A stretch of DNA of 23,257 nucleotides from an uncultured Elusimicrobia bacterium (GCA_964359165.1 CAYHRV010000008.1:1-23257); one strand, 5' to 3'; shown: positions 1 to 23,257, counted from the stretch's first letter. The notes: generated by a model not told the origin, from the letters alone. Numbers and translations: made by a program.

Positions 1-2
1 CG

Positions 3-3000
3 GGAAACTCATACGGGGTCGCGTGGGGTGACTACGACAACGACGGCGACCTGGATGCGATCGTGGCCAACTATTCCAACCAGGACGAGTTCCTTATTCG
101 CAACGATACGGCGGCCGTCCATGCGGCGCCGACGCCCCCCGGCGCATTCTCAGCCTCTTTCCAGGAGTACGGTCTTTCCTCCTCCTCCGGCGTTCTGACC
201 CTGTCCTGGGGCAACGGCGCGGACGTCGAGAACTCTACGGCTTCCCTGCGCTACTTCATCCGGGTGGGGACCACGGTGGCTGGGTCGAGCACGACCTTCA
301 AGATACCGGCGAGATATTCCTTGGACGGCTATTCCGGCGGCGGGTCCTCCCTCTACAGCACGAAGATCTCCTCCGCGGTCCGGGGCATGAAGCTCGTTAT
401 GCAGAAAGAGACCACCGTCTATTGGGCGGTGGTGACCGAGGACGGGGAGTTCCAGCGTTCGGCGCAGTCCGCGGAACAGACGGCGTTCCTGGCGGCTCCG
501 GGGGCGGTCACGGACCTGCGGGTCGCCTCCATCGTGTCCACCGGCCTGGGCGCCTCCTCCATGACGGTGACCCTGGCCTGGACGGCCCCGGGGGAGAACG
601 GCTACACGGGAGCCATCACGGGCGGCTCCTACGACATCCGTTACTCCACCCTGGCTCCCATCACGAGCACCAACGCCTACGCGGCGGCGGCCTTCACGAT
701 ATCCGTAGCCACCAACGCCAACCCTGGCGAGACGCACTCCTACGCGATCCCCCTCTTGGAGGCGAAGGCCACCCACTATTTCGCGATCACGGTCAAGGAC
801 GCGGCCGGAGTCCGCTCGGGACTATCGAACCCGACCACGGCCCAGGCCTATGTCGATGCCCTGTCGGGAACGGCGGACGGGGCCTACGATCTGGCCTTTG
901 GGGACTACGACCGGGACGGGGACCTCGACGCGATAACGGCCAACAGCGGGGCGGCGGACGAGACGCTCCTGCGCAACGACGGCAACAGCGTCTTCACCCG
1001 CCTCACCGTCGCCGGAAGCGCCGGCGACTCGCGGGGCGTCGCGTGGGGGGACTACGACAACGATGGAGATCTCGACGCGGCGGTGGCCAACGCCGGCGGC
1101 CAGGACGAGGTCCTTCTTCGCAACGACGGCGGGGGGGCCTTCGCCGTCGTCGCCCTCACGGGCTCGGGAGGGGATTCCGCCGGCGTGGCGTGGGGGGATC
1201 ACGACAACGACGGCGACCTGGACCTGGCCGTGTCCAACGCCGGCGGGCAGGACGAATATATCGCCCGCAACAACGGCGACGGGACCTTCTCGACCTTCAC
1301 TCTTACCGGCACGGCGGGCGCATCCTGGGGGGTCGGCTGGGGAGACTACGACAACGACGGGGACCTGGACCTCGCGGTGGCCAACGCGGCAGCGAACATG
1401 GTCTTGGCGCGCAACGACGGCAACGGCGTCTTTTCGACCTCGTCGGTCGCCGGGACATCGAACTATCGAGCCCTCGCCTGGGGGGATTTCGACGGCGACG
1501 GCGACCTGGACCTCGTGCTGGGGACCAACGGCGACGAGCTGCTGGTCCGCAACAACGGCAATGGGACCTTCACTTCCGCCGCGCTGACGGGGTCCGGAGG
1601 GGACACCTACGGCCTGGCCGCCGGCGACTACGACAACGACGGGGACCTCGACTTGCTCTTGGGCAATTTCGCCGGCGTGGACGAGACCCTCCTGCGCAAC
1701 GATGGCGTGGGGAATTTCACCCCCGTCGTCCTCGGCGGGACCGGGAGGAGCACGCTGGGAGCCTCTTGGGGAGATTTCGACGGCGACGGCGACCTCGACG
1801 CGATGCTCGCCGCTTCCAACGTCGATGACTTTATCCTGCGCAACGATACGGCTTCCACCCATAACGCGCCCACCGCCCCAGCCGGGGGATTCTCCTCCTC
1901 GTTCCAGGAATATGGGATCGCTTCGAGCTCGGGCGTCCTGACCCTCTCCTGGGGGAACGGTTCGGACACGCCGCATTCGACAACCACCCTGCGCTACCTC
2001 GTCCGGGTGGGGACCACGGTGGCTGGGTCGAGCACCACGGTCAAGATCCCGTCGAGGTTCAGCGTGGGTGGGTTCTCGGGCTCCCTTCCCTACAGCACGA
2101 ATGTCTCCTCCGCGGTCCGGGGCATGAAGCTGGTCCTGCAGAAAGAGGCCACCGTCTATTGGGCCGTGGCCGCGGAGGACTCCGAGTTCGCGCGCTCGGC
2201 GCAGTCCGCGGAGCAGACCGCGTCCCTCGTGGCCCCGGGCCGGGTGACGGACCTGCGTGTCGTCTCCATCGTGTCGACGGGCCTGGGCGCGAGCACGATG
2301 ACGGTCACCCTCCAGTGGACCGCCCCGGGCGATGACGGCTATTCGGGGGCCTTGGCCGGGGGAACTTTCGACCTCCGCTATTCGACCCTCGCCCCCATCC
2401 TGGGCTGGAACGACTACTCCACCGCGCCGTTCACGGTCTCGATCGCCAGTTCGGTCAACGCGGGAGAACTTCAGACCTATGTGATCGCCGACCTGGATGT
2501 CCGGACCTCGCACTATTTCGCCATCACGACCAAGGACGGGCTTGGCGTGCGGTCGGCTCTCTCGAACCTCAATGCCATCGCCACCGGGTACATACTGCTC
2601 CTGCCGGGGACCTCCGGGAGCGATCCGGGGGCGGCCTGGGGGGACTATGACCGGGACGGAGACCTCGACCTCCTGCTCTCGGACAGCCGGCTCATGCGCA
2701 ACGACGGGAACGGGAGCTTCGTGCAGGTCGCCGTCCCGGGAATGGGAGGGTTCGGCGCGTCCTGGGGCGATTACGACAACGACGGAGACCTCGACATCGT
2801 GTCCAACGCCAACGCCATCGGCGACGAGGTGGTCCTGCGCAACGACGGGGGCGCCTTCACGGCCGTCGCGGTGACCGGCTCTGGCGGCAACTCCGCCGGC
2901 GGCAACGCCTGGGGAGATTTCAACAACGACGGGCGCTTGGACTTCGCCGCGGCCAATCAGAGCGCGGAGAACGAGGTCCTGGCCCGCAACAACGGCAACG

Positions 3001-6000
3001 GGACATTCTCGACCTCCACCCTCACGGGCTCCGGCGGCTCCTCGCAAGGCATCGCTTGGGGCGACTACGACAACGACGGGGACCTGGACCTGGCCGTGGC
3101 CAACGGCGGCGAGGACCCGGTGCTGTTGAGGAACAACGGCGGGGGCGCCTTGAGCGTCACAACGGCCCTCAACGGGTTCGGGTTCCCGGTGCGCGCCATT
3201 GCTTGGGGCGATTACGACAAGGACGGGGACCTCGACCTGGCCTTGGCCCGCAGCGGCGGGGCCGATGAGAGCCTCCTGCGCAACAACGGCAACGGGACCT
3301 TCACGGAAGCGGTCCTCACCGGGTCCGGGGGGGATTCCTTCGGCGTCGCTTGGGGCGACTACGATAACGACGGCGACCTGGACCTAGCCGTGGCCAATGC
3401 GGGGGGAGGCGACGAGGTGGTCCTGCGCAACAACGGCAACGGAACTTTCTCCAAGTTCATCCTGGCGGGCACGGCCGGGAATACCCATGGGATAACCTGG
3501 GGAGACTTCGACGGCGACGGCGACTTGGACCTGGCCGCGGCGAGCGACGACAAGCAGGTCATGGTGCTTCGCAACGACGCGGCGCTGGCCCACAGTGTTC
3601 CGACCCCGCCCGTCGCCGGCTTCTCCGCCTCCTACCAGGAGTACGACGCCTCGGCCAGCTCCGGCGTGCTGACGCTCCAATGGGGCAACGGGTCGGATGT
3701 GGAGGATTCGACGGCTACCCTCCGCTATTTCGTCCGGGTCGGGACCACGGTGGCCGAAAGCAGCACCACGTTGAAGCTTCCCTCCCGTTACTCGCTCGAC
3801 GGTTTCGCCGGAGGGGGATCTTTCCTTTATAGCACCCAGGTCTCATCGGCGGCGCGCGGCATCAAGCTGGTGATGCAGAAGGAGACCACGGTCTATTGGT
3901 CCGTGCTCACCGAGGATTCCGAGTTCCTGCGCAGTTCCTCCTCCACGGAGCAGACGAGCTATCTCATCGCCCCCGGCCGGGTCACGGACCTTCGGGTCTC
4001 GGCCATCTCCTCCACGGGCCTCGGCGCGTCGTCGATGACGGTGACCCTGCAGTGGACCGCGCCCGGAGACAACGGCTATTCCGGGGCGCTATCGGGCGCC
4101 CTCTACGACATCCGCTACTCGACCCTGGCCCCCATCACCGCGGCAGGGGCGTACCTGGCCGCGCCGTTCACCCTTTCCATCTCCACCAACGTCAATCCCG
4201 GGGAAACGCAGACGGCGCTCCTCCAGTATCTGGAAGCCAAGGCCACCCATTATTTCGCGATCACGGCCAAGGACTCGACCGGCGTCCGGTCCTTGCTCTC
4301 CAATCCGGCCACGGCCGAGGCGTATGTCCGCTACCCGGCGGCGACCGGCGGGAACTCGAAGGCCGTCGCCTGGGGGGACTACGACAAGGATGGGGACCTC
4401 GACGCGCTCGTGGCCAACGGCGGGGGGGCCGACGAGTTCCTTATGCGCAACGACGGCAACGGCGCCTTCACGAAAGTGACCATCGCCGGCTCGGGAGGGG
4501 ATTCCACCGCCGTGGCGTGGGGAGACTACGACAACGACGGGGACCTCGACGCCCTGGTGGCCAATACCGGGAACGAGGATGAGTTCCTCCTGCGCAACGA
4601 CGGCGGGGCGTTCACCAAAGTCGCGCTCACGGGCACGGCGGGCAACTCGAAGGCCGCGGCGTGGGGCGATTATGACAACGACGGGGATCTCGACGCGCTC
4701 GTGGCCAACGCCGGGACGCAGGATGAATATCTGCTCCGCAACAACGGGACCTCGTTCTCCAGCGCGGCGATCGTCGGGATCGGCGGCGACTCCAATGGCG
4801 TGGCCTGGGGGGACCATGACGGCGACGGCGACCTGGACGCCGTCGTGGCCAACGGCGGAGCGGAGGACGAGGTCCTCCTGCGCAACGACGGGAGCGGGGT
4901 ATTCGTCCCCCTCGTCATGGCCGGGGGCTCGGGCGGAGCGTCTTACGGCGCGGCCTGGGGGGATTACGACAACGACGGGGACCTCGACATTCTCGTGGCC
5001 AACGGCGGAGCGGAGGACGAGGTCCTTTTGCGAAACGACGGGGGCGGCACCTTCTTCAAGATCACGCTGACAGGCTCTGGCGGCGACACCCGGGGCGCAG
5101 TGTGGGGCGACGCGGACAACGACGGGGACCTCGACATCCTCGCGGCCACCGGCGGCGGCGAGGACAAGATCCTCCTGCGCAACGACGGCGGAGGGACATT
5201 CGCCAAAGTCGTGCTGGCCGGATCCGGCTCTGAGTCGCGAGGCGCATCCTGGGGCGATTACGACGGCGACGGCGACCTGGACGCCGTCCTGGCCGGCGAT
5301 TCGGCGCAAGACGAGTCGATCCTTCGCAACGATCTCGCGTCTTCCCATAACGCGCCTTCCGCGCCTTCCTCGGGCTTTTCCGCCTCCTTCCAGGAATACG
5401 GGATCTTCGCGACCTCGGGGGTGCTGACGCTCTCCTGGGGGAACGGCTCCGATGCCGAGACTCCCGCCGCTTCCCTGCGCTATCTCGTTCGGATCGGCAC
5501 CACGGTGGCCGGTTCGAGCACCACGCTCAAGGTCCCTGTCCGCGTGAGCCTCAACGGTTCCTCCCCGTACAGCACGCGCATCACCCCGGCCGCGCGGGGC
5601 CTCAAGATCATCATACAGAAGGAGACCACCGCCTATTGGGCCGTGACCGCGGAAGACGGCGAGTCCTTGAGATCGTCCGAATCGGTGGAGCAGAGCGCCT
5701 TCCTGGCGGCTCCCGCGGCCATCGCGGATCTGGCCGCGGCTCAAGATAACACGGTGGAAACCTCCTCGAGCGCGTGGATGACGCTCACGTGGACGGTGCC
5801 CGGCGAGGACGGTTCGGCCTCCACGCTCCAGTCCGGCGCGGTCTACGACTTGCGCTGGAGCACGGTCGGGGTCGTGGACTCGCAAGCCAAATACGAGGCG
5901 GTCCCCAATCAATCGCTCATCGCGGCCGACGGCCAAATCCCAGGAACCGTGCGCACGCAACTGGTGGCCGTGCCGCCTGGAAAGACCTACTACTTCGCCC

Positions 6001-9000
6001 TCACCGTCAAGGACAGCCTCGGCTCGCGTTCGGGCCTTTCCAACGCCGCCGCCGGGGTGTTCGCCAACGCGCTTATGGAAGAGACCACCGGCGTCGCCAT
6101 CCCCACCGCGCTCCAGGGCGACACGACCGCCTTCCTGAAGGTGAAGCTCTGGGTAGATTCGGGGACCCTGACCTGGCTCAAGATCGCGGTGCGCAAGACC
6201 GGAGGCGTGCCCGACTCCGCCGTCAAGAACGTGGCGGTCTATCAGGACAGCAACGCCAACGGCGTTTTCGACGCGGCCGATTCCTTCGCCCTGCGCACCT
6301 CGCCGGCGGTGTTCGTCTCGAGCGCGGCGACGCTCACGCTGAGCCCGGCTCAGACCATCAATACGACCACCAAGACCTACTTCGTCGCCTTGCAGTTCGA
6401 GCCCGCGAACCTGCAGACCGACGGCTCCAGCGTGGCCGTCCGCCTCGATCCCCAGCCCTTCACCGTGCGAGGAGCCGGTATCCCCGGGACCGATCTGCCC
6501 GCCCTGCTCCTTGATGGAGTCGACGACCAGGTGCGCGTCCCCACGAGCGGGAGCCTCAACGCGATCGGCGCCTTGACCGTCGAAGCCTGGGTGAAGACCA
6601 CGGACTCGGGGGCAGACCGGTCCATCGTGACGCGGGCCAACGGGGGTCTGACTCAGGGCTTCCGGCTCTGGCTCAACGGCGCGGGCTGCGGAGCGGGAGT
6701 GCCGACCTTGTTCATCGGTCCGGCGTTCCTATGCGCCAATCGAGAAGGAACGCCCGTCCGCGTCGACGACGGACGCTGGCATCACGTGGCCGCGGCCTAC
6801 AACGACCTCAACGGCAAGCGCATATTCGTCGACGGCGAGATGCTCTCCACCGGGCCGGTGTCCGCCGGCGTGCTCGCCGACACCAGCGACCTGGCCTTCG
6901 GAGGGCCCAATCCGGCAGGCGGCGGGTACCTCGCCGGGGTCCTAGACGAGGTGCGGGTCTCGAATTTCATGCGCTACACATCCGGCTTCGTCCCCGCGCT
7001 GCGCAACTCCACCGACGGAGGCACCGCCCTCCTGCACCATTTCGACGCGCTCGTGGGGACCGGGACCCTGGTGGTTGACGCCTCGGCCAACGGCAACAAC
7101 GGGACCTTGCTCGGAAACATGGCGGGCTATGGGCGGTCCACTTCGACGGTGCTTGTCGACGTCCAGGACGTCCTCCAGTCCAGCGGGACGGATATCAGTC
7201 CGACCACGATGTATCGCAACGCCACGGACGTGGGACTGCTCAAGCTCCAGCTCTGGACCGACCACGACTACGCGACCTTCCAACGCATCTCGGTCGGCCA
7301 TTTCGGGTCGGGGTCGGAGGCCGGGGTCACCAACATCCGGATGTACAAGGACGACGGCGACGGGCTCTTCTCCCCGGTCTTGGACTCGAACCTGACCCTG
7401 GGCCAAGACTTCGCCGTCGGCAAGGCCACCTTCGACCTCGTGGCCGCGGGGCAGACCCAGGTCATCACCCCCTCGACGAAGACCTACTTCTTCTCCTGGG
7501 ACATCACCGGCGCGGCCCAGATCGGCGAGTCCCTCGGCCTGCAGATAGGCAGCACGGAGGACATCCTGCTTTCCGGGACCACGGACGCGGTGTCCGCGTT
7601 GAGCTTCCCCATCCAGACCGCCACGCGCGCGGTGGTGGCGGCCAGCGCCTTCGTGGCCGCCGAGACGGCTACGGGGACCTGGGTCAATATCTCCTCCATC
7701 GTCTTCAACGGCAATTTCAACCTCGGCAACGTGAACCACTTCCACCCCCGCTGGGACCAGAATCCCGCGACATCGATCACTGGGACGGAGCCGCTCTGGA
7801 ACGCCGGGAAAACCACGACCACGGCGACCCAGGACGCCAATGATTGGTATTTCCACGTGAAGGCCTTCGATGGGAGCGACACTCCGGGCACCCAGCAGGA
7901 CCTGGGCCCCTTCTTCGTCGACCGGACCCCGCCTTCCGCCTCCCTGTTCCGCAGCTTCAACTCCACGGCCGGAGCGCTGGCCGAGGCGCAGGTCAACGAC
8001 CTCGCCTTGGGGGTGACGGTCCAGCTCGCCGTGCAGGATGCCCTATCGGGCCTGAGCCTCGACGGTTTGGCGCCCTTGGCTCCCGTGGAAGGCACCGTGG
8101 GGCTCTGGCATTTCGACGACCCCTCGGGTTCGGTCTGGAAGGATTCCGGGACCGCCGGCATCCAGCTCTCGGGTTCCGGCGTCGTCACTCGGGCGGCGGG
8201 ACGCTTCCGCACCGGTCTGCTCTTCGACGGGTCCGGGAACCTGAGCGCATCGCCCTCCTCCCTCCCCCTGGGCGCCGCGGTGCGGAGCATCGAGGCGTGG
8301 ATCAACCCCGTCTCGACGCAGACCACGCTCGGCCTGGTGACCTGGGGAGCGGCGGGATCGAACACCCTGATGCGATTCGGGATGATAAACGGAAAGCTCT
8401 CCTCGGACATGGGCGGGGTGTCCAATCTCGCGGGGCCGGTATTGAGCACGGGGGTCTGGCAGCACGCCGCTTTCACCTATGACGGGAGCGCGGCGCGCTA
8501 TTACCTCAACGGCGTCTTCGTGGGAAGCCACACCTACGGGGCCGTAGCCACCTCGGCGGGGACTCTCTATGTCGGAGCCGGAGAGGGCGCCACGCTCAAG
8601 TTCCGAGGCACCATTGACGAGGCCCGCATCCTCAACCGCGTCTTGAGCGCGGAAGAGGTCTATAACGATCGATTCCGGGGTGACCCGTATTACGCGGCCT
8701 ACTCCACTTCCGCCGGCAATTCCTGGCAGTTCGTGCTGAGCACCACCCCCGGCTCGGGCCCCTGGGTGGCGCGCAGCGGCGCGCACGGCTCCTCGGCGCT
8801 GGAGACGATCTCGGTGTACGGCCTCAACCTCATCGTCTCCACCAGCAACGCCGCCGGGGCCCAAGCCACCAATCAGGTGCTTTTCTATGCCGCGGACACC
8901 GCGGGCAACGCGCAGGTGTCCGGCCCCTTCGGCCTGGTGGTGGACACCAACGCCGCCGTGGCTCTGTCCACGCCGATCGCGCCAGCCAATGGGGTCTACA

Positions 9001-15000: not shown

Positions 15001-18000
15001 CCCCCTTGAGCGCGGTAGTGAGCTCCTTCCCGGTGGTCACCGCCACGGCCCTCATCCAGGCGACGACGAACTTCCTGCAGATCCCCACGGTGGTGTCCCT
15101 GGCCCCCGGCGGGGTCGACCAGGGGGCCTCGGACATCCCCATGCTCCGCTTCGACCTGCTCTCCAACAAGAACAACTTCTCCTGGCAGGGCGTGGTCGTT
15201 GAGAAGACCGGCACGGCCCAGGACTCCGACGTGGGGGCGGTGAAGGTCTGGCTCGACAACGGCGACGGGGTCTTCTCGGTGGCGATGGATTCCGCCATTA
15301 CCAACGGCCTGGACACCTTCCTCTCCGGGCAGGCCAACGTCGCTCTCACTACGCCGCAGACCATCTCCAAGAGCACGCAGAGCTATTTCATCACCGTCGG
15401 CGTGAGCCCGAGCGCGGTCCCGGGCAGGACGATCGGATTGCAGGTGGCCACCTCGGCCAGCCTGGTCGTCAACTACCCCAACGAGGTCTCTACGATGACC
15501 GTCGCCTTCCCGCTGGAAGGCGGGCCGGCGCCCATCAACCAGTTCGCCAACACGGTCTCGGTGACCACCGCCAGCATAGTCCCCGTCCTGGGGGCCGAGC
15601 CGGGAACCCAGAACGTGGCGGTCATGTCCCTGGAGATGAAGACCAACGTGTCCAACGCCCGCTGGCTCATCCTGCCCATCAGCCAGATCGGCACGGCCCC
15701 GGACACGGACCTCGGCGACGTCAAGGTGTATTACGACGTGAGCAACATCGGGTCCTTCAACTCCGCCAACCTGAGCTCCTACGTGCTCATCACCTCCACG
15801 GGGCACCGGTTCGGACAGAACGGTCCCAAGTCGGTGCGCTTGGCCTTCGCCTCCCCGCCCACGCTCGGCCCGGCGACCCAGCGCTTCTTCGTCACGGTCG
15901 ATCTGAATTCCTCCGCCAAGCCCGAGAACACCGTGAAGCTGAGGACCAACGTCTCCGCGGGAGAGCCGGGGATCATCGAGTCGCCCAACACCCTGGCCAT
16001 CAGCTTCGAATCCTCGGCGTTGAACATCAATCCTCCCCCGACGCTCATGTACGTCCTGGCGGCCAGCTCCGCGCCCGCCTCGGTCAACCAGGGCGACTCC
16101 AACCTTCCCATCCTCACCCTCAGGGCGTGGATGGCGGCCTACACCGGACAATGGACGCAGTTGGCCGTGTCCCGCTGGGCGCCCGGCCTGGATTCGGACG
16201 TCTCCGGCGTAAAGCTCTTCTACGACAGCAACGACAACGGGGTCCTCGACGTCACCTCCGACCAGCGCCTGAGCACCGCCTCCTTCGTCGCGGGCACCGC
16301 GACGCTGGGTTTCTCCACCCAGACCATCCGGGTCGCGACGCAGACCTATTTCCTCACCTACGACATCTCCATCACGGCCGGCGGAGGCAACGGAGCGAGC
16401 GCCTCCCTGGGGGCGCCGGGGGTGTTCACCGTGGCCGCTCCGCACAGCGTCTCTTCGCTGGGCTTCCCGATACAATCGGCCTCCGCCACGGTGAAGGCCA
16501 CCCAGACGGGGCTCTTCGCCCTCGGGCAGGCCAAGGCCCCCGGCCAGCTCGTGCAGAGCGCCACCAACCAGGTCATGCTCACCCTGGAGCTCTATACGAC
16601 TCAGTACGCGCTGCTCTGGAGCGGCCTGTCCGTGCAAAGGACGGGCACGGCTTCGGATGCGGATATCACCGCGGTGCATGTCTGGACCGACGGCGGGACC
16701 TACGGCGTCATAGATCCGGAGGACAAGGACATCACCTCCGGCCTCAACTCCTTCCTGGCCGGGTCGGCCGGGGTGAGCCTCGTCAACGTCCAGACGATCG
16801 GCACCTCGCACGCGCGCTACCTGGTCACCGTGGACATCGCGCCCTTCGCCGACCCGGCCAAGACCTTCGGCCTCTCCGTCGCCGCCGCGTCCGCGTTCAC
16901 GCTCAATTCCCCCAATGTCGCAGTGGACCAGAATTTCCCGATGACCGTGGCGCCCGTTCCCCTGCGGAAGCTGCCCGAGAACCTCGTGGTGACGCCGCAG
17001 AACCTGATGCCCGGCGGGGTCAACCAGGGGCAGGAGTCGACGGCGGCCAAGCTCCTGGTGCGCGCCTCGCGGGATCGGGTGACCTGGACCCGGCTGAAGC
17101 TGGCGAAAGCGGGCAGCATCGAGGAGGCAAGCGTGCGCGAAGTCCGCATCGTCAAGGACCTGGATGGCTCGGGCGCTGTGAGCTCCGGCGACCTTATCGT
17201 AGGAAGCGGGACCTTCAGCTCCGGCGTGGCCGACATCGTCTTCTTCGCCGCCCAGACCGTCACCGCGTCTACGGCGACATACTTCATGACCATGGTCCTG
17301 GATTCCTCGGCCACGGTGGACGCCCTGGCGGGGTTCACCCTGGGCAATGAGACCTTCTTCTCCGTGGACGCTCCCGACGGGGCGGTCTTGAACGGCACCT
17401 CCTTCGCCACGACCTTGGGGAAGGTGCTCGATTCCAAGACCCCGCTCATGCCCGTGGTCACGCTCGATGGGGCCATGAGCAGCCAATTCGAATACCTGCA
17501 CTTCGTCTGGAATTCCACCGTGGCGTTCGGGAGCATGGACAAGGCATGGTACGCGGTGGGAACGGATTCCAGCACCGACGCGGGCAGGCAGAACGTGCTC
17601 GCCTACACCGCCATCCCGGTCACGGCCGTGGATTACAAAGGCATAGGGTTCCCCTTGAAGAGCGGCACCACTTATTATGTCTCGGTCAAGACGCAGTCCT
17701 CCTTCGGCTTCTTCAGCCCGGCGGGCATCTCCCCGGGTATGCTCATGGATTTCACCGTCCCTCCGGTCCCGGCGCCGGCGGTGACCGCCGGGCAGGCCGC
17801 GGTGCTCGTGAGCTGGGGGACCGTCGGCGGGGGCCCCACCGGGATCGCCGGCTACCTCGTCGAATACCGCAAGGGCGACAGCCCCATCTGGTACAACGCG
17901 AAGACCAAGAGCCGGAGCAGCGTCGCCTCCGTATCCTCGATGCGCGCGGATGTCCGCGTAGCCGAGGTCATCACCTCCACCGCCGAACTCGTCACAGGAG

Positions 18001-18425: not shown

Positions 18426-18430
18426 TTATC

Positions 18431-18472
18431 CTGAAAATCCAGCAAATTCCATGGAATTTGCTGGATTTTCAG
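18431..18472. terminator. Perfect 42-bp palindrome (21-nt arms); a candidate intergenic hairpin, terminator/attenuator or operator
   Basis: CTGAAAATCCAGCAAATTCCA|TGGAATTTGCTGGATTTTCAG is its own exact reverse complement, centred on CCATGG. It lies 5 nt after the giant gene stop and 19 nt before the next start. It is AT-rich in a GC-rich context. No downstream T-run follows the stem, although the 3' arm contains TTTTC. Confidence 0.55.
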
Positions 18473-18491
18473 TCACATTCGTGGTTTCTTC

Positions 18492-20087
18492 GTGATTCAG
18501 CGCGCGAGCGGGCTACACTATAGCGTGCGCGGATTCCTCGCCGTCATCAGCCTTATTTCCCTCTCCATCCCCCCGGCTTTCTGCGCAGGCGTCGCCGGAA
18601 GGCCGGGCGACCTGTTCAATTTCGGCGCCGGGGCGCGCTCCTTGGGCATGGGCTCGGCCGCGACCGCGGTGGTCAACGACGTGACCTCCGTCTACTACAA
18701 CCCCGCGGGGCTGGGCCTGCTGCCCTCGCGGGAAGTCGTGTTCATGCGCGCCATGCTCTTCCAGGGGGCCAACTACGATTATCTGGGCTACGCGCAGAAC
18801 AAGAGCAAGACGGCCGGCGGCTGGGGCTTGGAGTTCATCCGCCTGGGCATCCAGGGGGCGGAGGGGCGCGATGAGTTCAACCAGCCGACCGGCGGGTTCG
18901 GCTATTCCGAGACCGCCTTCTCCTTCGCCAGCGGCTGGCGGGGGGTGCTCCACCCCAACATGTCCCTGGGAGTGCGGGGCAAGATGCTCCAGCGCAGCCT
19001 GGCCGGCAGTTCGGACAGGCTCGTGGGCGTTGATTTCGGGGCGCAGGCCGGCCCCTTCATGGGCGAGCGCCTGACCCTGGGCGCCGTGGCCTCCAACGTC
19101 GTGGGCCTCAAGACCGGCGACACCGACGACAAGCTCCCGACCTTCCTGCGCGTCGGGGCCGCCTACCGGGTGGCCGGGCCCCTCTCCATCGCCGGCGACT
19201 TCTCCAACGACAAGGAGTTCCGCCTGGGCACGGAGTACGCCTTCGGCATGGTGTCCGTGCGCCTGGGCATGGCCGATGAGGGCCTCACCTTCGGGGGCGG
19301 CCTGGTCTTCAAGAACCGCTACCGCATGGACCTGGCCGTGCTCAGCCATCCCGAATTGGGAATGTCCCAGAGGATATCCCTCGGGTATCGTTTCGGCGCC
19401 GTCGCGCCCACGGCGAAGGGGCGCAAGATGCAGTTCTTCGCCGGGCAGTTCCTCGGAGAGGCCCAGGCCGCGCTCAAGAAGCGCGACTACCTCAAGGCCT
19501 CCTCGGCCCTGGACACGGGCATCGGCATCGACCCCAAGCTGGGCGGGGGGGAATGGCGCGCCAAGGCGGAGCGTCTGCGGCGCATCGTCATGAAGCTCGA
19601 CCTCCAAGCCCATCCCGAGGACGCCGAGGTGCTCGCCCAGGAGACCGAGGCGGCCTACATCGCCTATGCCGCCATCGACGCCTACCTGACGCGCGATGAG
19701 GACAGGGCCCTCCTGCTCGCGCACGCGGCCCTGGGCCAGGAGCCCAGCAAGGGCGCCTACCAGCACCTTCTGGACGCTCTCTCGGGACTCAGCGGCAGGC
19801 CGGTGGACCGCGACCTGGTCCTGCCTCCCGGGCGCCTGGCCGAGCTCAAGATGAAGAAAGCCGTGGACGCGGTCTACGCGCGGCGCTTTGAAGCCGCCAT
19901 CGTTCTGCTCCGGGAAGCGCTCTGGCTCGACCCGGAGAACGCCGCGGCCTGGACCAAGCTCGGGTCCGCCTATTTCGCGGTCAACGACAAGGAGCGCGCG
20001 GCCGAAGCCTACCGGAAAGCGGTGGAGCTCGATCCCGCCGACACCAAGCTCAAGGAGTTCATGCGCGCCCAAGGGATGCGGCAATAA
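18492..20087 (+). CDS. Outer-membrane beta-barrel of the FadL/PorV-like superfamily fused to a C-terminal TPR domain
   Basis: GTG start. The N-terminus is signal-peptide-like (RGFLAVISLISLSIPPAFCAG). The motif GAGARSLGMGSAATAVVNDVTSVYYNPAGLGLL matches the G.GAR..GMGGA..A..D....[YW]NPAGL hatch motif of FadL/TodX/PorV/TraF-like barrels. Alternating-hydrophobic strands run to RISLGYRF. TPR-like repeats follow and the ORF stops at TAA 20085-20087. Confidence 0.85.
   Translation: MIQRASGLHYSVRGFLAVISLISLSIPPAFCAGVAGRPGDLFNFGAGARSLGMGSAATAVVNDVTSVYYNPAGLGLLPSREVVFMRAMLFQGANYDYLGYAQNKSKTAGGWGLEFIRLGIQGAEGRDEFNQPTGGFGYSETAFSFASGWRGVLHPNMSLGVRGKMLQRSLAGSSDRLVGVDFGAQAGPFMGERLTLGAVASNVVGLKTGDTDDKLPTFLRVGAAYRVAGPLSIAGDFSNDKEFRLGTEYAFGMVSVRLGMADEGLTFGGGLVFKNRYRMDLAVLSHPELGMSQRISLGYRFGAVAPTAKGRKMQFFAGQFLGEAQAALKKRDYLKASSALDTGIGIDPKLGGGEWRAKAERLRRIVMKLDLQAHPEDAEVLAQETEAAYIAYAAIDAYLTRDEDRALLLAHAALGQEPSKGAYQHLLDALSGLSGRPVDRDLVLPPGRLAELKMKKAVDAVYARRFEAAIVLLREALWLDPENAAAWTKLGSAYFAVNDKERAAEAYRKAVELDPADTKLKEFMRAQGMRQ
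18597..19394 (+). other. Beta-barrel portion ending in an internal OMP beta-signal-like strand
   Basis: Gly/aromatic-rich amphipathic strands include GGWGLEFIRLGIQG, FSFASGWRG, SLGVRGKML, LVGVDFGAQAG, LRVGAAYRV, FRLGTEYAF and RMDLAVL. The final strand RISLGYRF (19371-19394) ends in an aromatic Phe, like a BAM beta-signal. Confidence 0.65.
19435..20084 (+). repeat. TPR-like helical repeats (predicted periplasmic)
   Basis: FLGEAQAALKKRDYLKASSALDTGIGIDPK, plus AVDAVYARRFEAAIVLLREALWLDPENAAAWTKLGSAYFAVNDKERAAEAYRKAVELDPADTK. The W-L-G-Y-A-F-A-P spacing is typical of TPRs. Confidence 0.75.
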
Positions 20088-20093
20088 GATCCG

Positions 20094-21044
20094 ATGGACA
20101 TTGTGATCGTGGTCGTCGTCCCCCTTCTGTTCCTGATGCTGGCCGCCAGCATGCTGGTGGTCAGCCAGCTCTCCGGCTTCTACCACTTCAACAAGTATTC
20201 GAAGCGCCAGCAGGAGAACAAGCGCGAGATCGCCACCTTCATGAACCGCCTGGCCGCGGCCCAGAACACCGTGTTCCAGCGCAGCCGGCAGCTCGAGGAC
20301 CTCTCCTCCCGGCTCCAGATGAACAATCAGGAGCTGGCGCGCCTCAACAGCATGAAGACCAAGTTCCTGTCTATGGCCGTCCACGACATGAGGACGCCTC
20401 TGGCCACCATGAAGGGCTTCGGAGAGATGCTCAGCCGGCAGGTCTATGAGGACAAGCAGAAGAAGTACGTCGATTACATCGTCCGCGGCAGCGACAAGAT
20501 CAACGACCTCCTGGCCGACCTCACCGACCTCTCCATCATCGAGGCCGGCAAGCTGCGCATGTCCAAGTCCCCCTTCGAGCTCTCCGCGATGCTCGACTCG
20601 GACATCACGCCCCGCATCGGATTCGCCGCCCAGGAGAAAGGCATCGTTTTCACCACGACGGGCCTTCCCCAGAGCGTCACAGTGCATGGAGACCGCGCGA
20701 ACCTCGCAAAAGCCCTCAAGAACATGCTCAATAACGCGGTCAAGTTCACCCCGGCCGGCGGAAAGGTGGACCTCAAGGTGACGCTGACCGGCCGCGGATT
20801 GCTCTTCCAGATCAAGGACACCGGCCCCGGCATCCACCTCTCCGAGCGCAAGCGCGTCTTCGAGAAGTTCTACCAATCGCAATTCGGAGACCCCAAGGCG
20901 AAGAAGCAGGGCTGGGGCCTGGGGCTGGCCATCGCCCAAGAGATCGTCAAGGCCCATCAAGGGGAGGCCGGGGTGGACTCCCCGGGACTGGGCAAGGGCT
21001 CGACCTTCTGGTGCCGCATCCCCCTCAAGCCCTCCCGCGCGCCC
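20094..21044 (+). other. Histidine kinase core (TM1, coiled-coil, DHp/HisKA, HATPase_c) with no extracytoplasmic sensor domain
   Basis: H-box FLSMAVHDMRTPL (His97 codon at 20382-20384). N-box LKNMLNNAVKFTPAGG. G1 IKDTGPGI. F-box VFEKFYQ. G2 GWGLGLAIAQEIV. C-terminal GKGSTFWCRIPL. Confidence 0.9.
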
Positions 21045-22562
21045 ATGAAGGCCCTGGCTTCCCTTGCGCTCTTCTTCCTGCTCGGCCTGCTCCCGGGGAG
21101 GGCGAAGGCCCAGTCGGGCATCCCGCTCGACGACAAGGCCAAGTTCGAGCGGTCGCTCGAGGAAAAGGCGGAGTCGGTGCTCCTGCGCATCCTGGGCCCC
21201 AACCGCTCCCGCGTGGTCGTGGACGCGACCATCGATTTCACGCGCATCGAGAAGTTCGAGGTCAAGGCCGGCGCGGCCATCGGCGGTGAGGAGAGGAACG
21301 CCCTCTTCCTCTGGCAGAACATCGGGGCCCAGAGCGGAGGCCAGGAGCTCTTGCCCGGCATCCCCTCGCCGGAAGCGGCCCCGGGTTTCGGCGCGAAGTC
21401 CTATGAGAGGCAGAACTCCTTCCCTAGCTCCTTCGTCAAGCGGCTCAAGGTCACCGTGGTCCTGGACCGCACCGTGAGCGCGGAGATGGACGACGTCCTG
21501 ACCCGGGCCGTCGGGGAGATACTCAATCTCCAGGCGGACCGCGATGAGATGTCGATCACCCGGGCGCCCTTCGCCCCTCCTTGGAAGACGATATGGCACA
21601 CGCAGGAGTCGGTGAGCCTCCTATTTAAGTACGCCGTGGTGAGCCTCATGACGCTGATCACCCTGGTGGTGGTGGCCGCCTGCTTCCTCAAGCTGGCCAG
21701 CGCCATGGATTCCGTGGCCCAAGCCCAAGCCCATCAGCTTCAGATGGACTTCGGCCAGGGGAAGGAAGGGGAGGGAGGGGCCGGCGCGGATGGGAAGAAG
21801 AAGGAAGGCGAGGAGGAGGAAGAGGAGGAGGAAGGGCCGCAGAAGATCGTCTTCAACGTGCGGCCGGAACAGGTGGAGACGCTCGCCGAGCTCCTGCGCG
21901 GCCAGGACCCGGAGAACGTAGCTCTAGTGGCCGCGCACCTGAGCCAGGACGTCAAGAAGCTCTTCTTCGCCCAACTCTCCCCCTCCGCCTATAGCCAGGT
22001 GCTCCTGCACCTGAGCCGCATCCGCTTCGTGGAGGCCGAGGTCGTCTCCGCGGTCAAAGACGAGCTCGAGCGGCGCATGGACAGCGCCGTGGGCGGACGC
22101 TCGAACCTGCTGGAGCTCATCGACACCTCCGACCTGCGCGGCAAGCGGGAGCTCCTGGGCATGCTGGAAGCCACCGACCCCGACCTCTACGCCGTGGCGC
22201 GGGAGCGGATACTGCTCTTCGAGGACCTCTCCGATTTGGAGGAAAAGGATTGGTCGCTCGTGCTCTCCGTCGTGACCCTGGAGGAATGGGCCTTCGCGCT
22301 CTATGAGGCTCCCGAACTCCTGGTCGAGGCCCTAAGGGGGCAGATGCTGCCCAAGACCTGGGCGATATTGGCGCAGATGATGCAGGTGGGCAGGCCCTCC
22401 GAAGCCGCGGTGAAGAAGACGCATGAGCGCATCGTCAAGGCGGTCGCCAAGCTCATCGCCGACGGCCGCATCACCAATCCGGTGACACGGCGCATCGAGC
22501 TCAAGACACTGCAGAAAGAGGAGGCCCTCCCCGCTCAAGAGGAGGGGGTGCTCAATGGCTGA
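20094..22562 (+). CDS. Chimeric membrane protein: histidine kinase + FliF C-terminal (RBM3)-like periplasmic domain + FliG middle/C-terminal-like domain
   Basis: ATG lies 6 nt after the upstream stop. The single 822-codon frame has no internal stop. Three hydrophobic helices (aa ~3-25, ~320-336, ~510-535) give a topology that places the kinase and FliG-like parts in the cytoplasm and the FliF-like part in the periplasm. See the sub-features for motifs. Confidence 0.85.
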   Translation: MDIVIVVVVPLLFLMLAASMLVVSQLSGFYHFNKYSKRQQENKREIATFMNRLAAAQNTVFQRSRQLEDLSSRLQMNNQELARLNSMKTKFLSMAVHDMRTPLATMKGFGEMLSRQVYEDKQKKYVDYIVRGSDKINDLLADLTDLSIIEAGKLRMSKSPFELSAMLDSDITPRIGFAAQEKGIVFTTTGLPQSVTVHGDRANLAKALKNMLNNAVKFTPAGGKVDLKVTLTGRGLLFQIKDTGPGIHLSERKRVFEKFYQSQFGDPKAKKQGWGLGLAIAQEIVKAHQGEAGVDSPGLGKGSTFWCRIPLKPSRAPMKALASLALFFLLGLLPGRAKAQSGIPLDDKAKFERSLEEKAESVLLRILGPNRSRVVVDATIDFTRIEKFEVKAGAAIGGEERNALFLWQNIGAQSGGQELLPGIPSPEAAPGFGAKSYERQNSFPSSFVKRLKVTVVLDRTVSAEMDDVLTRAVGEILNLQADRDEMSITRAPFAPPWKTIWHTQESVSLLFKYAVVSLMTLITLVVVAACFLKLASAMDSVAQAQAHQLQMDFGQGKEGEGGAGADGKKKEGEEEEEEEEGPQKIVFNVRPEQVETLAELLRGQDPENVALVAAHLSQDVKKLFFAQLSPSAYSQVLLHLSRIRFVEAEVVSAVKDELERRMDSAVGGRSNLLELIDTSDLRGKRELLGMLEATDPDLYAVARERILLFEDLSDLEEKDWSLVLSVVTLEEWAFALYEAPELLVEALRGQMLPKTWAILAQMMQVGRPSEAAVKKTHERIVKAVAKLIADGRITNPVTRRIELKTLQKEEALPAQEEGVLNG
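21045..21700 (+). other. TM2, a FliF C-terminal (YscJ_FliF_C/RBM3)-like periplasmic domain, then TM3
   Basis: MKALASLALFFLLGLLPGRAKAQ is followed by LEEKAESVLLRILGPNRSRVVVDATIDFTRIEKFEV...PGIPSPEAAP...YERQNSF...RLKVTVVLDRTV..DDVLTRAVGEILNLQADRDEMSITRAPF, then LLFKYAVVSLMTLITLVVVAACFLKLA. The motif order parallels the last periplasmic domain and second TM of Salmonella FliF (IEAILSPIVG..V.AQV.A.LDF...E.T.E.Y.P ... PG...N.P ... ERLSVAVVV ... I..L...A.GF...RGD.L.V...PF ... TM). Confidence 0.6.
21759..21846 (+). repeat. Low-complexity acidic/Gly/Lys linker including E8 (GAG/GAA run 21810-21833)
   Basis: GKEGEGGAGADGKKKEGEEEEEEEEGPQK, with eight consecutive Glu codons (gag gag gag gaa gag gag gag gaa). 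Confidence 0.9.
21850..22530 (+). other. FliG middle + C-terminal-like domains (MgtE_N/FliG armadillo-like fold)
   Basis: LAELLRGQDPENVALVAAHLSQDVKKLFFAQLSPSAYSQVLLHLS parallels the FliG_M L..LL..EHPQ..AL.L..L.....A.VL..L......EV. LLFEDLSDLEEKDWSLVLSVVTLEEWAFALYEAPELLVEALRGQMLPKTWAILAQMMQVGRPSEAAVKKTHERIVKAVAKLIADGRI parallels the FliG_C F.FEDL..LDDR.IQ.VLREV....LA.ALK.A...L.EKI..NMS.RAA..L.E.ME..GPVR..DVE.AQ..I...VR.L...GEI. Confidence 0.7.
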
Positions 22563-23257
22563 AAAGGTCGATTTCCTGCTCGCCTCCCTGCGCGGCCAGC
22601 CTCCTCCCGAGGCGCCGCCAGAGGAAGGTGATTTCACGTCGGCCGCCGCCCCTTCCGAGGACGCGCTCGCCCCCATGCGGGCCAAGATCGAGGAACTCGA
22701 GCGCAAGCTGGCCGAGGCGGCCTCTCCCCCGGCCCCGGCGGAAGGGGAGGAGGCGGCGCCCCAGCCGCCCCAGGCGCCGACCGAGTTGGCTCTCTTCCTC
22801 CATACCCGCGTGGAGCTATTGGAGAAGAGGCTGGAGCTGGCCCAGCAGGAGGCTCTGCGCGCCAATCTGATACTCCGGGAGAGGGAGGACGCCCAGCGCA
22901 AGGCCCAGACCGAGGTGGAGGACCTCTTCCGCGGCATCCGGGAACAGGAACGCGCGGCCCGCTTCGACCGGAGGCTAAGGGAGGATCACTCGACGGTGCG
23001 GGGCAAGGTGGAGGAACTGGAGGCGCGCCTGGCCATGGCCCAACTGCGCATGATCCCGGCCTCGGAGGTGCTCGCCTTCCTGGAGAAGGAAGAGGGGCTT
23101 GAACGGCTTAAGGAAAGGCTCAAAGAACAGCTATCAAGAATCGAGAACGCGGCGCCTTTGGAGGCGCCAGTTCCAGAGGCAGAGGAGCGGCCCGGGCACG
23201 CCCGGCCCCCCCCCGGGCGCCCCGGTACCGGCCCCCCCCCGCCCATAGCGCCCCAGG
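22555..23257 (+). CDS. Coiled-coil / proline-rich protein, 3'-truncated by the window and absent from the supplied ORF track
   Basis: ATG at 22555 overlaps the upstream stop (ATGGCTGA, 8-nt overlap). GGAGGGGG at 22541-22548 is a Shine-Dalgarno-like site 6 nt upstream. The frame is open for 234 codons to the window edge: MAEKVDFLLASLRGQPPPEAPPEEG...MRAKIEELERKLAEA...LEKRLELAQQEALRANLILREREDAQRKAQTEVEDLF...VRGKVEELEARLAMAQLRM...ERLKERLKEQLSRIEN...RPPPGRPGTGPPPPIAPQ. The heptad-like E/R/L/A-rich segments indicate coiled coil. Confidence 0.7.
   Translation, partial: MAEKVDFLLASLRGQPPPEAPPEEGDFTSAAAPSEDALAPMRAKIEELERKLAEAASPPAPAEGEEAAPQPPQAPTELALFLHTRVELLEKRLELAQQEALRANLILREREDAQRKAQTEVEDLFRGIREQERAARFDRRLREDHSTVRGKVEELEARLAMAQLRMIPASEVLAFLEKEEGLERLKERLKEQLSRIENAAPLEAPVPEAEERPGHARPPPGRPGTGPPPPIAPQ
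23206..23240 (+). repeat. Two C9 homopolymer tracts inside the proline-rich coding tail
   Basis: C9 at 23206-23214 and C9 at 23232-23240, encoding PPP/PPPP. Confidence 0.9.

Follow-up and report, generated by a model that had tools for sequence, protein, structure and literature searches.

A conserved Elusimicrobiota gene cluster that appears to encode an envelope-spanning machine of flagellar motor parts without a flagellum

The stretch of DNA analysed here, called the window throughout, comprises 23,257 nt (66% G+C; GCA_964359165.1 CAYHRV010000008.1:1-23257) of an uncultured Elusimicrobia bacterium and stems from a groundwater Elusimicrobiota metagenome. It carries four co-directional genes on the plus strand, and we infer that they make up the upstream five-sixths of an operon, conserved in Elusimicrobiota, that encodes an envelope-spanning machine made of flagellar motor parts without a flagellum. 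In brief, the genes encode a giant adhesin with a C-terminal sorting domain (CTD), a barrel protein extended by a tetratricopeptide repeat (TPR) domain, a chimera of a histidine kinase with FliF and FliG, and a coiled-coil protein. We suggest, at about even odds, that the operon encodes a proton-driven rotor-stator module that lacks type III export and is coupled to an adhesin-holding barrel and a giant adhesin. The parts all belong to known families; their assembly matches no described system. The four genes, all on the plus strand, are:

3..18425, plus strand: giant adhesin open reading frame (ORF), with the frame open at the 5' end of the window.
18492..20087, plus strand: barrel-TPR protein, 531 aa (ORF, Pfam/NCBIfam, AlphaFold2 (AF2) model, Foldseek).
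20094..22562, plus strand: kinase-FliF-FliG chimera, 822 aa (ORF, Pfam, PDB profile search, AF2 model).
22555..23257, plus strand: 5' part of the gene for the coiled-coil protein; the ORF leaves the window at its 3' end.

Successive genes are separated by 66 nt and 6 nt, and the stop of the chimera overlaps the start of the coiled-coil gene by 8 nt. The last three genes are also found, in identical form, on a 4-kb contig from the Hainich groundwater metagenome. A sequence-only reading of the window had described the same four genes, their strand, their spacing and a hairpin in the 66-nt gap, all of which lie where it put them, and its domain calls (FG-GAP, Laminin_G_3, CTD, barrel, TPR, kinase, FliF_C and FliG) were upheld by hidden Markov model searches. 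It needs amending on two points. The genes and their order are real, but the cluster continues past the coiled-coil gene, with motA and motB next in relatives; and the giant gene is present with its CTD, but its truncation at the 5' end had been missed.

The chimera combines a kinase with the ring and rotor domains of the flagellar motor in the following order:

20094..21107, plus strand: transmembrane (TM) segment TM1 (aa 1-25), a long helix, the histidine-kinase core and TM2 (aa 316-338), from Pfam, the AF2 model, hydropathy and Foldseek.
20322-21029, plus strand: HisKA (aa 87-152) and HATPase_c (aa 199-312), from Pfam, within a kinase core of aa 77-312.
21123..21701, plus strand: FliF RBM3-like domain (aa 344-500), then TM3 (aa 506-536), from the PDB profile search, PF08345 and the AF2 model.
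21876..22562, plus strand: FliG_M (aa 595-665) and FliG_C (aa 691-794), from Pfam and the PDB search.

Hydropathy gives three TM segments, and the AF2 model has a predicted local distance difference test score (pLDDT) of 76. TM1, the kinase core and TM2 are followed by a domain of approximately 160-170 aa, predicted to be periplasmic, then by TM3, an acidic disordered linker, FliG_M and FliG_C. In the modelled topology the kinase and FliG are cytoplasmic and RBM3 is periplasmic. The kinase is of the HisKA type, with HisKA (57.5 bits) and HATPase_c (83.5 bits) both above cut-off and with an intact H-box (SMAVHDMRTPL) and N, G1 and G2 boxes. It has no sensor domain. A Foldseek search with the chimera model matched HK853, DivL and GacS. 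With the whole model the top 50 matches were histidine kinases only, and the periplasmic domain was therefore resolved by a PDB profile search.

A profile of the periplasmic domain, run against all PDB sequences, matched FliF only at E <0.1 (5e-7 and 1e-6). The domain aligned to residues 241-286 and 376-440 of Salmonella FliF, which are the two halves of RBM3. The Pfam model YscJ_FliF_C (PF08345) gave a weak 19.2 bits in the whole chimera and 24.7 bits for the isolated domain (cut-off 23.8), and it matched all 23 of the 23 family members scanned. The topology in the AF2 model is alpha-beta-beta-[loop]-beta-beta-alpha-beta. The residues W, PG, P and Y are invariant in an insertion at aa 391-443, which the monomer model shows as disordered and which occupies the place of the ring-dependent beta-collar of FliF. 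As in FliF, the RBM3/beta-collar region lies between two TM helices, here TM2 and TM3. No match to RBM1/RBM2 (PF01514) was found in the chimera, so that the part of FliF that houses the export gate is missing.

The C-terminal part of the chimera is FliG. FliG_M (31.5 bits) and FliG_C (54.7 bits) are both above cut-off, and the PDB matches are FliG only (1lkv, 3e-11), besides one insignificant match. The GG and xxFED hinges are kept, with VGG and LLFED aligning to the hinges of T. maritima FliG. No match to FliG_N was found in the chimera; the alignment to full-length FliG (3hjl) starts at residue 107, and the acidic linker joins TM3 straight to FliG_M. The FliM-binding motif EHPQR is also absent. 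The aligned residues read QDPEN or EDPAN, and only the Pro is constant, plus the Glu in one of the two main locus layouts (type B, described below). In the torque helix a conserved Lys occupies the position of R281 (E. coli numbering), and D288 and D289 are replaced by Q and M/S/T. The FliF_C and FliG assignments of the sequence-only reading survive these profile searches.

Genes for a stator are found in relatives of the window. In the 96%-identical locus L005, and in every locus of the window's own layout (type A) that is long enough, motA and motB directly follow the coiled-coil gene. MotA of L005 matched MotA/PomA in the PDB with E values of 3e-30 to 6e-24 over its full length, and TolQ with 5e-3. 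MotB of the relatives has MotB_plug, an OmpA-like peptidoglycan-binding domain and the channel Asp in its TM segment (YGDMM), and the pair in these relatives is thus a stator of the flagellar MotA/MotB kind. Two other assignments were considered and rejected. An ExbB/TolQ-type motor does not fit a MotA that matches MotA/PomA at ~1e-30 and TolQ at 5e-3, and for the Zorya system (ZorAB) MotB alone matched ZorB models, with no ZorA match and no other PADLOC family.

The residues at the predicted stator-rotor contact differ between the layouts. The E98 position of MotA is always K/R, and at R90 type B has R and type A has Q. Beside the torque helix, FliG reads D/E-K-T-W in type B and P-K-T-W in type A. 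The Arg of the MotA loop and the acidic residue next to the FliG torque helix have been lost together between the type A and type B clades. This paired change is consistent with a direct but re-wired interface, and it represents a single evolutionary event only.

The coiled-coil protein, whose homologue in the nearest relative has 373 aa and whose L005 homologue is 91% identical, has no Pfam, PDB or PADLOC match, a result that speaks neither for nor against a FliH-like identity. Because no TM segment or signal peptide was found in it, we take the coiled-coil proteins to be cytoplasmic. A homologue lies downstream of FliF/FliG wherever one is detectable, in all type A and many type B loci.

The second gene encodes the predicted link to the outer membrane, in two parts on the plus strand:

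~18729-19394, plus strand: 14-strand PorV/FadL-like barrel, aa 80-301 (AF2 model).
~19407-20069, plus strand: periplasmic TPR domain, aa 306-526 (AF2 model, TPR matches).

In the AF2 model (pLDDT 88.9) a signal peptide and a short plug-like segment at the N-terminus precede 14 strands and an all-helical repeat domain. In a Foldseek search of the PDB the barrel model was closest to 6h3i_F (E = 1.7e-7), the PorV chain in the SprA translocon of F. johnsoniae, with TbuX and FadL as the next matches; the claim that a PorV/FadL-like barrel directly follows the CTD-bearing giant is supported by these matches. The protein is above cut-off for Pfam UPF0164 and has TPR matches. Against the NCBIfam model PorV_fam it reached 80.9 bits, below the cut-off of 90, with the 14-strand fold and the top PDB match both pointing to PorV. 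A type B homologue scored 27.6 bits against Pfam PorV (cut-off 27), and some homologues are named PorV/PorQ family by NCBI. The modelled fold and the family neighbourhood are thus PorV/PorQ-like. PorV itself is without the C-terminal TPR extension of the window's barrel. Apart from RBM3 and MotB, this TPR domain is the only periplasmic module of the cluster.

The giant protein ends in the following domain:

18150..18425, plus strand: C-terminal sorting domain (YPNPF...KIGVIH-stop) of the T9SS (type IX secretion system) type A / FlgD-Ig kind (TIGR04183, FlgD_ig).

It scored 25.9 bits with TIGR04183 (cut-off 23) and 31.5-34.4 bits with FlgD_ig (cut-off 27); with Pfam Por_Secre_tail it remained under cut-off (21.8 bits). 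With the TIGR04183 match at its extreme C-terminus, the giant protein has a T9SS type A CTD. In this domain it shares 52-59% identity with the giants of the distant loci L062 and L063, while FliF/FliG is only ~25% identical. The CTD is thus kept far better than the motor proteins, as would be expected if it docks on the co-encoded barrel.

In some loci a small ORF of 89-159 aa, consisting mainly of a CTD, lies between the giant and barrel genes. It was seen in L004 (8166-8435), L056 (7983-8396) and the very distant locus L060 (7869-8348), and likewise in L007, L008 and L012.

The distribution of the cluster was determined with a profile scan for the FliF/FliG part over GTDB contigs, with one genome per species. 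The profile was seeded with an alignment of eight sequences, because a 17-sequence alignment was too divergent. The scan gave 51 loci, all in Elusimicrobiota metagenome-assembled genomes (MAGs), in two layouts. In type A, the layout of the window's clade, the order is giant-CTD, barrel-TPR, kinase-FliF-FliG (fused, or split and adjacent), coiled-coil, MotA and MotB. In type B it is receiver, barrel-TPR, kinase, MotA, FliF/FliG, one or two coiled-coil proteins and MotB. The barrel-TPR family is equally restricted to Elusimicrobiota. It was found near FliF/FliG in nearly all of the approximately 60 loci that are long enough, across several layouts and a G+C content of 29-66%, directly upstream of FliF/FliG except in type B, where the kinase and motA come between. 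The kinase is fused to FliF/FliG, split and adjacent, or split with motA between, depending on the lineage. Such a Rosetta-stone pattern argues for a physical link.

Every type A locus that has upstream sequence carries a giant ORF ending in a CTD. Complete or called type A giants have 2,250, 4,082, 5,404, 5,736 and 5,989 aa, and in L056-L058 giants of 5,404-5,989 aa occupy the same position and have the same domain make-up as that of the window.

More distant relatives were found with phmmer, which gave 239 matches at E <=1e-10 against 1.84 billion representatives. Many of these are RBM3-TM-FliG fusions of 480-660 aa with 22-30% identity, some with an added C-terminal TPR. Named members belong to Elusimicrobia, plus one Candidatus Saganbacteria MAG. 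Four distant relatives (24-28% identity, 29-64% G+C) could be placed on contigs, and in three of the four a giant CTD gene lies directly upstream:

L060 (29% G+C): a 17,141-aa giant with the same CTD, a small CTD-only ORF, barrel-TPR, FliF/FliG-TPR and very long coiled-coil proteins.
L063 (43% G+C): a giant of at least 3,521 aa with CTD, barrel-TPR and FliF/FliG-TPR.
L062 (64% G+C): a 3,850-aa Kelch-rich giant with CTD, barrel-TPR, FliF/FliG, MotA, an extracytoplasmic function (ECF) sigma module and a kinase.
L061 (39% G+C): barrel-TPR, FliF/FliG-TPR and coiled-coil, with no giant gene.

What stays nearly constant is therefore a barrel-TPR gene located a short way upstream of FliF(RBM3)/FliG, with a coiled-coil gene after FliF/FliG and usually a giant CTD gene in front. 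Because the same gene order recurs in ~60 independent loci, the arrangement is not due to chance. The synteny expected by the sequence-only reading, with giant CTD genes adjoining the chimera and the barrel-TPR gene, was thus found in all type A loci with upstream sequence and in three of the four distant loci. The link between giant and motor is not universal, as type B loci usually lack the giant.

Several further observations concern individual loci. With a called length of 17,141 aa, the L060 giant (1-7241, leaving the locus) is very large among bacterial proteins, and its CTD is of the same family with 39% identity. The FliF/FliG fusions P0292, P0299, P0303 and P0312, from L060, L061 and L063, have an extra C-terminal TPR that would be cytoplasmic, and in these three loci a kinase and motAB were not seen within 10 kb. 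In L062 the module is followed (12508-15521) by genes for an ECF sigma factor, a zf-HC2 anti-sigma factor and a MucB/RseB homologue and by a histidine-kinase gene of its own, an arrangement that suggests a connection with signalling of envelope stress. In each of three MAGs the whole system is present twice, at separate loci, as L023 and L027 (GWA2_61_42), L005 and L013 (binchicken_co248_100), and L051 and L055 (SKS5.bin41). In the type B locus L019 (UBA9634) two FliF/FliG paralogues (5858-7345 and 9341-10786) flank motA, which hints at a two-component ring or a recent duplication.

Based on these observations, we suggest how such a machine might work. The FliF/FliG fusion would assemble into a ring with one FliG per FliF, like the C-ring and the MS-ring, the latter an assembly of approximately 33-34 FliF subunits, and proton flow through peptidoglycan-anchored MotAB would turn or load this ring through FliG_C. 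The periplasmic face of the ring would engage the TPR domain of the barrel, the TPR making contact with the ring or with the stators. The barrel would hold the adhesin by its CTD, as PorV/SprF-type barrels hold T9SS cargo, and the force of the motor could thereby be delivered to the surface adhesin for gliding-like movement, tensioning or deployment. The kinase, without a sensor and on the rotor subunit, may report or regulate the state of the motor via adjacent OmpR-like and CheY-like regulators; most plausibly it reads or controls that state. The envelope-spanning reading proposed earlier is supported and extended by this analysis, on evidence that is wholly computational, and the function is speculative, as that reading had itself said.

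Tentatively, and with distinctly less confidence than for the coupled module as such, we consider that this may be a fourth kind of proton-driven rotary machine, in which a MotAB-turned FliF(RBM3)-FliG ring drives or tensions a giant adhesin via a PorV-like barrel. According to a review, only three such machines are recognised, ATP synthase, the flagellar motor and the T9SS.

A number of points weigh against a rotor-stator module coupled to the adhesin. Ring formation, rotation and the contacts between TPR and RBM3 and between barrel and CTD are steps inferred from sequence, as is the final output, be it adhesin movement, deployment or load sensing. The window itself has no motAB. The classical charge pairs of FliG R281/D288/D289 with MotA E98/R90 are not kept; charges are present on both partners, rearranged. 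Most type B loci have no giant gene beside the module, and within 10 kb of the type C loci, relatives that keep barrel-TPR and FliF/FliG, motAB and a kinase were not seen. A 14-strand barrel cannot serve as export pore for the giant, being too small, and a translocon is missing from the cluster. It should also be noted that the searches for flagellar and T9SS genes cover the loci (within 10 kb, 13 loci with gene tables), and such genes might lie elsewhere in these genomes.

Comparison with the T9SS and gliding machinery of Bacteroidota provides the closest parallel on the surface side. In both cases a giant repetitive CTD adhesin (SprB) is encoded directly upstream of a FadL/PorV-fold barrel (SprF), a proton-driven stator of the 5:2 type is present, and the proposed logic is an inner-membrane motor that acts on a surface adhesin. 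The motor differs, with GldLM on a GldKN ring there and MotAB on a FliG/FliF ring here. The barrel TPR has no counterpart in PorV/SprF, and the host phylum is outside the group usually credited with the T9SS.

This parallel raises an alternative which we regard as unlikely, though it is the strongest of the rivals, namely a dedicated secretion and anchoring system in which the MotAB-FliG-FliF ring supplies energy as PorLM/GldLM does, and CTD cargo is exported and attached with no later movement. The CTD is of T9SS type A and strongly conserved, the solved structure that best matches the barrel is the PorV of the SprA translocon complex, genes with a CTD are found directly upstream, and an additional small CTD-only ORF occurs in some loci. 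However, neither an SprA/Sov-like translocon nor a PorU sortase, PorZ, PorK/L/M/N or GldJ was found in the window or the gene-tabled loci, in agreement with the earlier observation that the window has no canonical T9SS motor or ring genes. The barrel is too small for the cargo, and in most type B loci the motor module is complete but has no cargo gene beside it.

Slightly less likely again is a surface or load sensor, in which adhesin, barrel and ring form a mechanical input, MotAB is a load-dependent element and the output is phosphotransfer from the rotor-borne kinase. Such a role would suit a kinase that lacks a sensor domain and either forms part of the ring protein or is encoded beside it, and in most type A loci motB is followed by an OmpR-like gene, with CheY-like receivers recurring nearby. 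The type C relatives have giant, barrel-TPR and FliF/FliG genes and no kinase nearby, though, which makes the kinase an accessory and not part of the core, and the receiver of the OmpR-like protein is degenerate. A full stator with plug and peptidoglycan-binding domain would also be costly for a pure sensor.

It is improbable that the adhesin is a mere neighbour by descent and that barrel-TPR, FliF/FliG, MotAB and kinase do another job, such as Tol-Pal-like maintenance of the outer membrane. The absence of an adjacent giant gene from most type B loci and from L061 would agree with this. Against it stand the giant CTD genes directly upstream in all type A loci with upstream sequence and in three of the four divergent loci, the bodies of the giants, which differ (FG-GAP/laminin-G versus Kelch) while the CTD is the same, and the barrel, which belongs to a family binding such CTDs.

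The flagellar basal body provides the parallel on the motor side. It shares with the cluster the RBM3 of FliF, FliG_M/FliG_C with their hinges, a flagellar-type MotA, and a MotB with plug, Asp and OmpA-like domain. Natural and engineered FliF-FliG fusions are known (e.g. PDB 8z4d), and the fusion in the window fixes FliF and FliG at 1:1. In contrast to the basal body, the chimera lacks RBM1/RBM2, FliG_N and EHPQR and has a kinase at the FliF N-terminus, the charge pairs are rearranged, and the partners are a PorV-like barrel and a CTD adhesin. Families for FliM/N, FliH/I/J, FlhA/B, FliPQR, rod, hook and flagellin were absent within 10 kb in 13 of 13 gene-tabled loci, which speaks against the earlier concern that this might simply be a fliF-fliG locus. 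Missing from the FliF/FliG parts are exactly the stretches with which these proteins bind the export gate, FliM and one another, which argues that the locus is not an ordinary flagellar one. A flagellar remnant in decay would not be expected to occur in two copies, as the system does in several MAGs. It is therefore highly improbable that this is a flagellar fliF-fliG locus, whether ordinary or decaying, and the ordinary one is essentially excluded, even though FliF_C, FliG_M, FliG_C, MotA and MotB are all flagellar families and a few Elusimicrobiota do have complete flagellar gene sets, since the frames are intact and conserved at 24-96% identity over ~60 loci with non-flagellar partners.

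Two other systems resemble parts of the proposed adhesin-coupled motor. The Agl-Glt machinery of Myxococcus spans the envelope and couples a MotAB/TolQR-type motor via periplasmic and outer-membrane proteins to a surface adhesin, with coiled-coil scaffolds in the cytoplasm, AglZ among them. It differs in that AglRQS is generic and TolQR-like with no FliG/FliF partner, and no Glt protein is homologous to the parts found here. In Campylobacter and Helicobacter the periplasmic TPR proteins PflA and PflB position stators around the flagellar rotor. They offer an alternative role for the TPR of the barrel, but they belong to true flagella and carry no fused barrel of the outer membrane.

The body of the giant protein is built of repeats, with the following features on the plus strand:

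3..5740, plus strand: super-repeats, at least four copies of 1,737 nt (579 aa) each, with 70-82% DNA identity (repeat-family spacing).
6513..12905, plus strand: region of four Laminin_G_3 (concanavalin-like lectin) domains at 6513-6965, 8229-8660, 9654-10094 and 12618-12905 (Pfam).
18431..18472, plus strand: perfect, AT-rich hairpin of 19 bp, located between the giant and barrel genes (folding, -32 kcal/mol).

The visible part of the protein has 6,140 residues. The frame is open to position 3, starts inside an FG-GAP repeat and has no signal peptide in the window; the protein therefore lacks its N-terminus here and must exceed 6,140 aa in length. Pfam matches are FG-GAP_3 (365 bits), four Laminin_G_3, fn3 and FlgD_ig. 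Each super-repeat consists of an FG-GAP beta-propeller with 49-aa blades followed by a module of ~280 aa, and FG-GAP_3 matched six stretches per 612-aa piece of the protein. The super-repeats are followed by the Laminin_G_3 domains, spaced by Ig-like modules, then by a long stretch of ~110-aa repeats without a match to any Pfam family, by fn3 and by the CTD.

The hairpin has a z of -6.35, and none of 200 shuffles folded equally well. A canonical U-tract is missing, and hence the terminator scan did not call it. A search for its sequence in 55 other loci did not find it. The hairpin may be an attenuator or a stabiliser of the mRNA end, and it may set the ratio of adhesin to motor expression.

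Some genes downstream of motB in type A relatives may be mentioned. The OmpR-like regulator (L002 15034-15720, with homologues in L056-L058) has a degenerate receiver in which the Asp at PhoB D53 is kept and the conserved Thr/Lys are not. In one locus, L003, a gene for a FlgO/CsgG-like lipoprotein (16339-17190) directly follows motB; in Vibrio, FlgO belongs to the outer-membrane part of the flagellar rings. Just downstream of the cluster, L057 (20201-22481) and L058 (15994-21576) carry a gene for a GGDEF response regulator and the F-type ATP synthase operon.

FliG and flagellar-type MotAB are regarded as specific to the flagellum. A full-text literature search returned no description of the cluster, the sole mention being a passing remark on orphan fliG and motAB. 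According to that remark, in a preprint, most free-living Elusimicrobiota lack structural genes for a flagellum yet have fliG and motAB, the role of which is called unclear there. The same phylum includes non-flagellated magnetotactic members, whose means of motility is described as unexplained.

Here a rotor-stator module occurs apart from the secretion apparatus, the rod and the filament, and its conservation extends across a deep-branching phylum that is largely non-flagellated. If functional, it would be a natural test of FliF, FliG and MotAB working alone, with relevance to models of flagellar origin, and a minimal rotor with ring, FliG and kinase on one polypeptide would be attractive for structural work. 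It would also be a candidate mechanism by which uncultured groundwater bacteria, among them the magnetotactic Elusimicrobiota that have no flagella, could move on surfaces or adhere to them. If the proposed reading is true, the Elusimicrobiota would have a new gliding or adhesion motor, and the flagellar rotor-stator module could exist and function alone, which bears on the evolution of the motor whether the module is a relic or a derivative.

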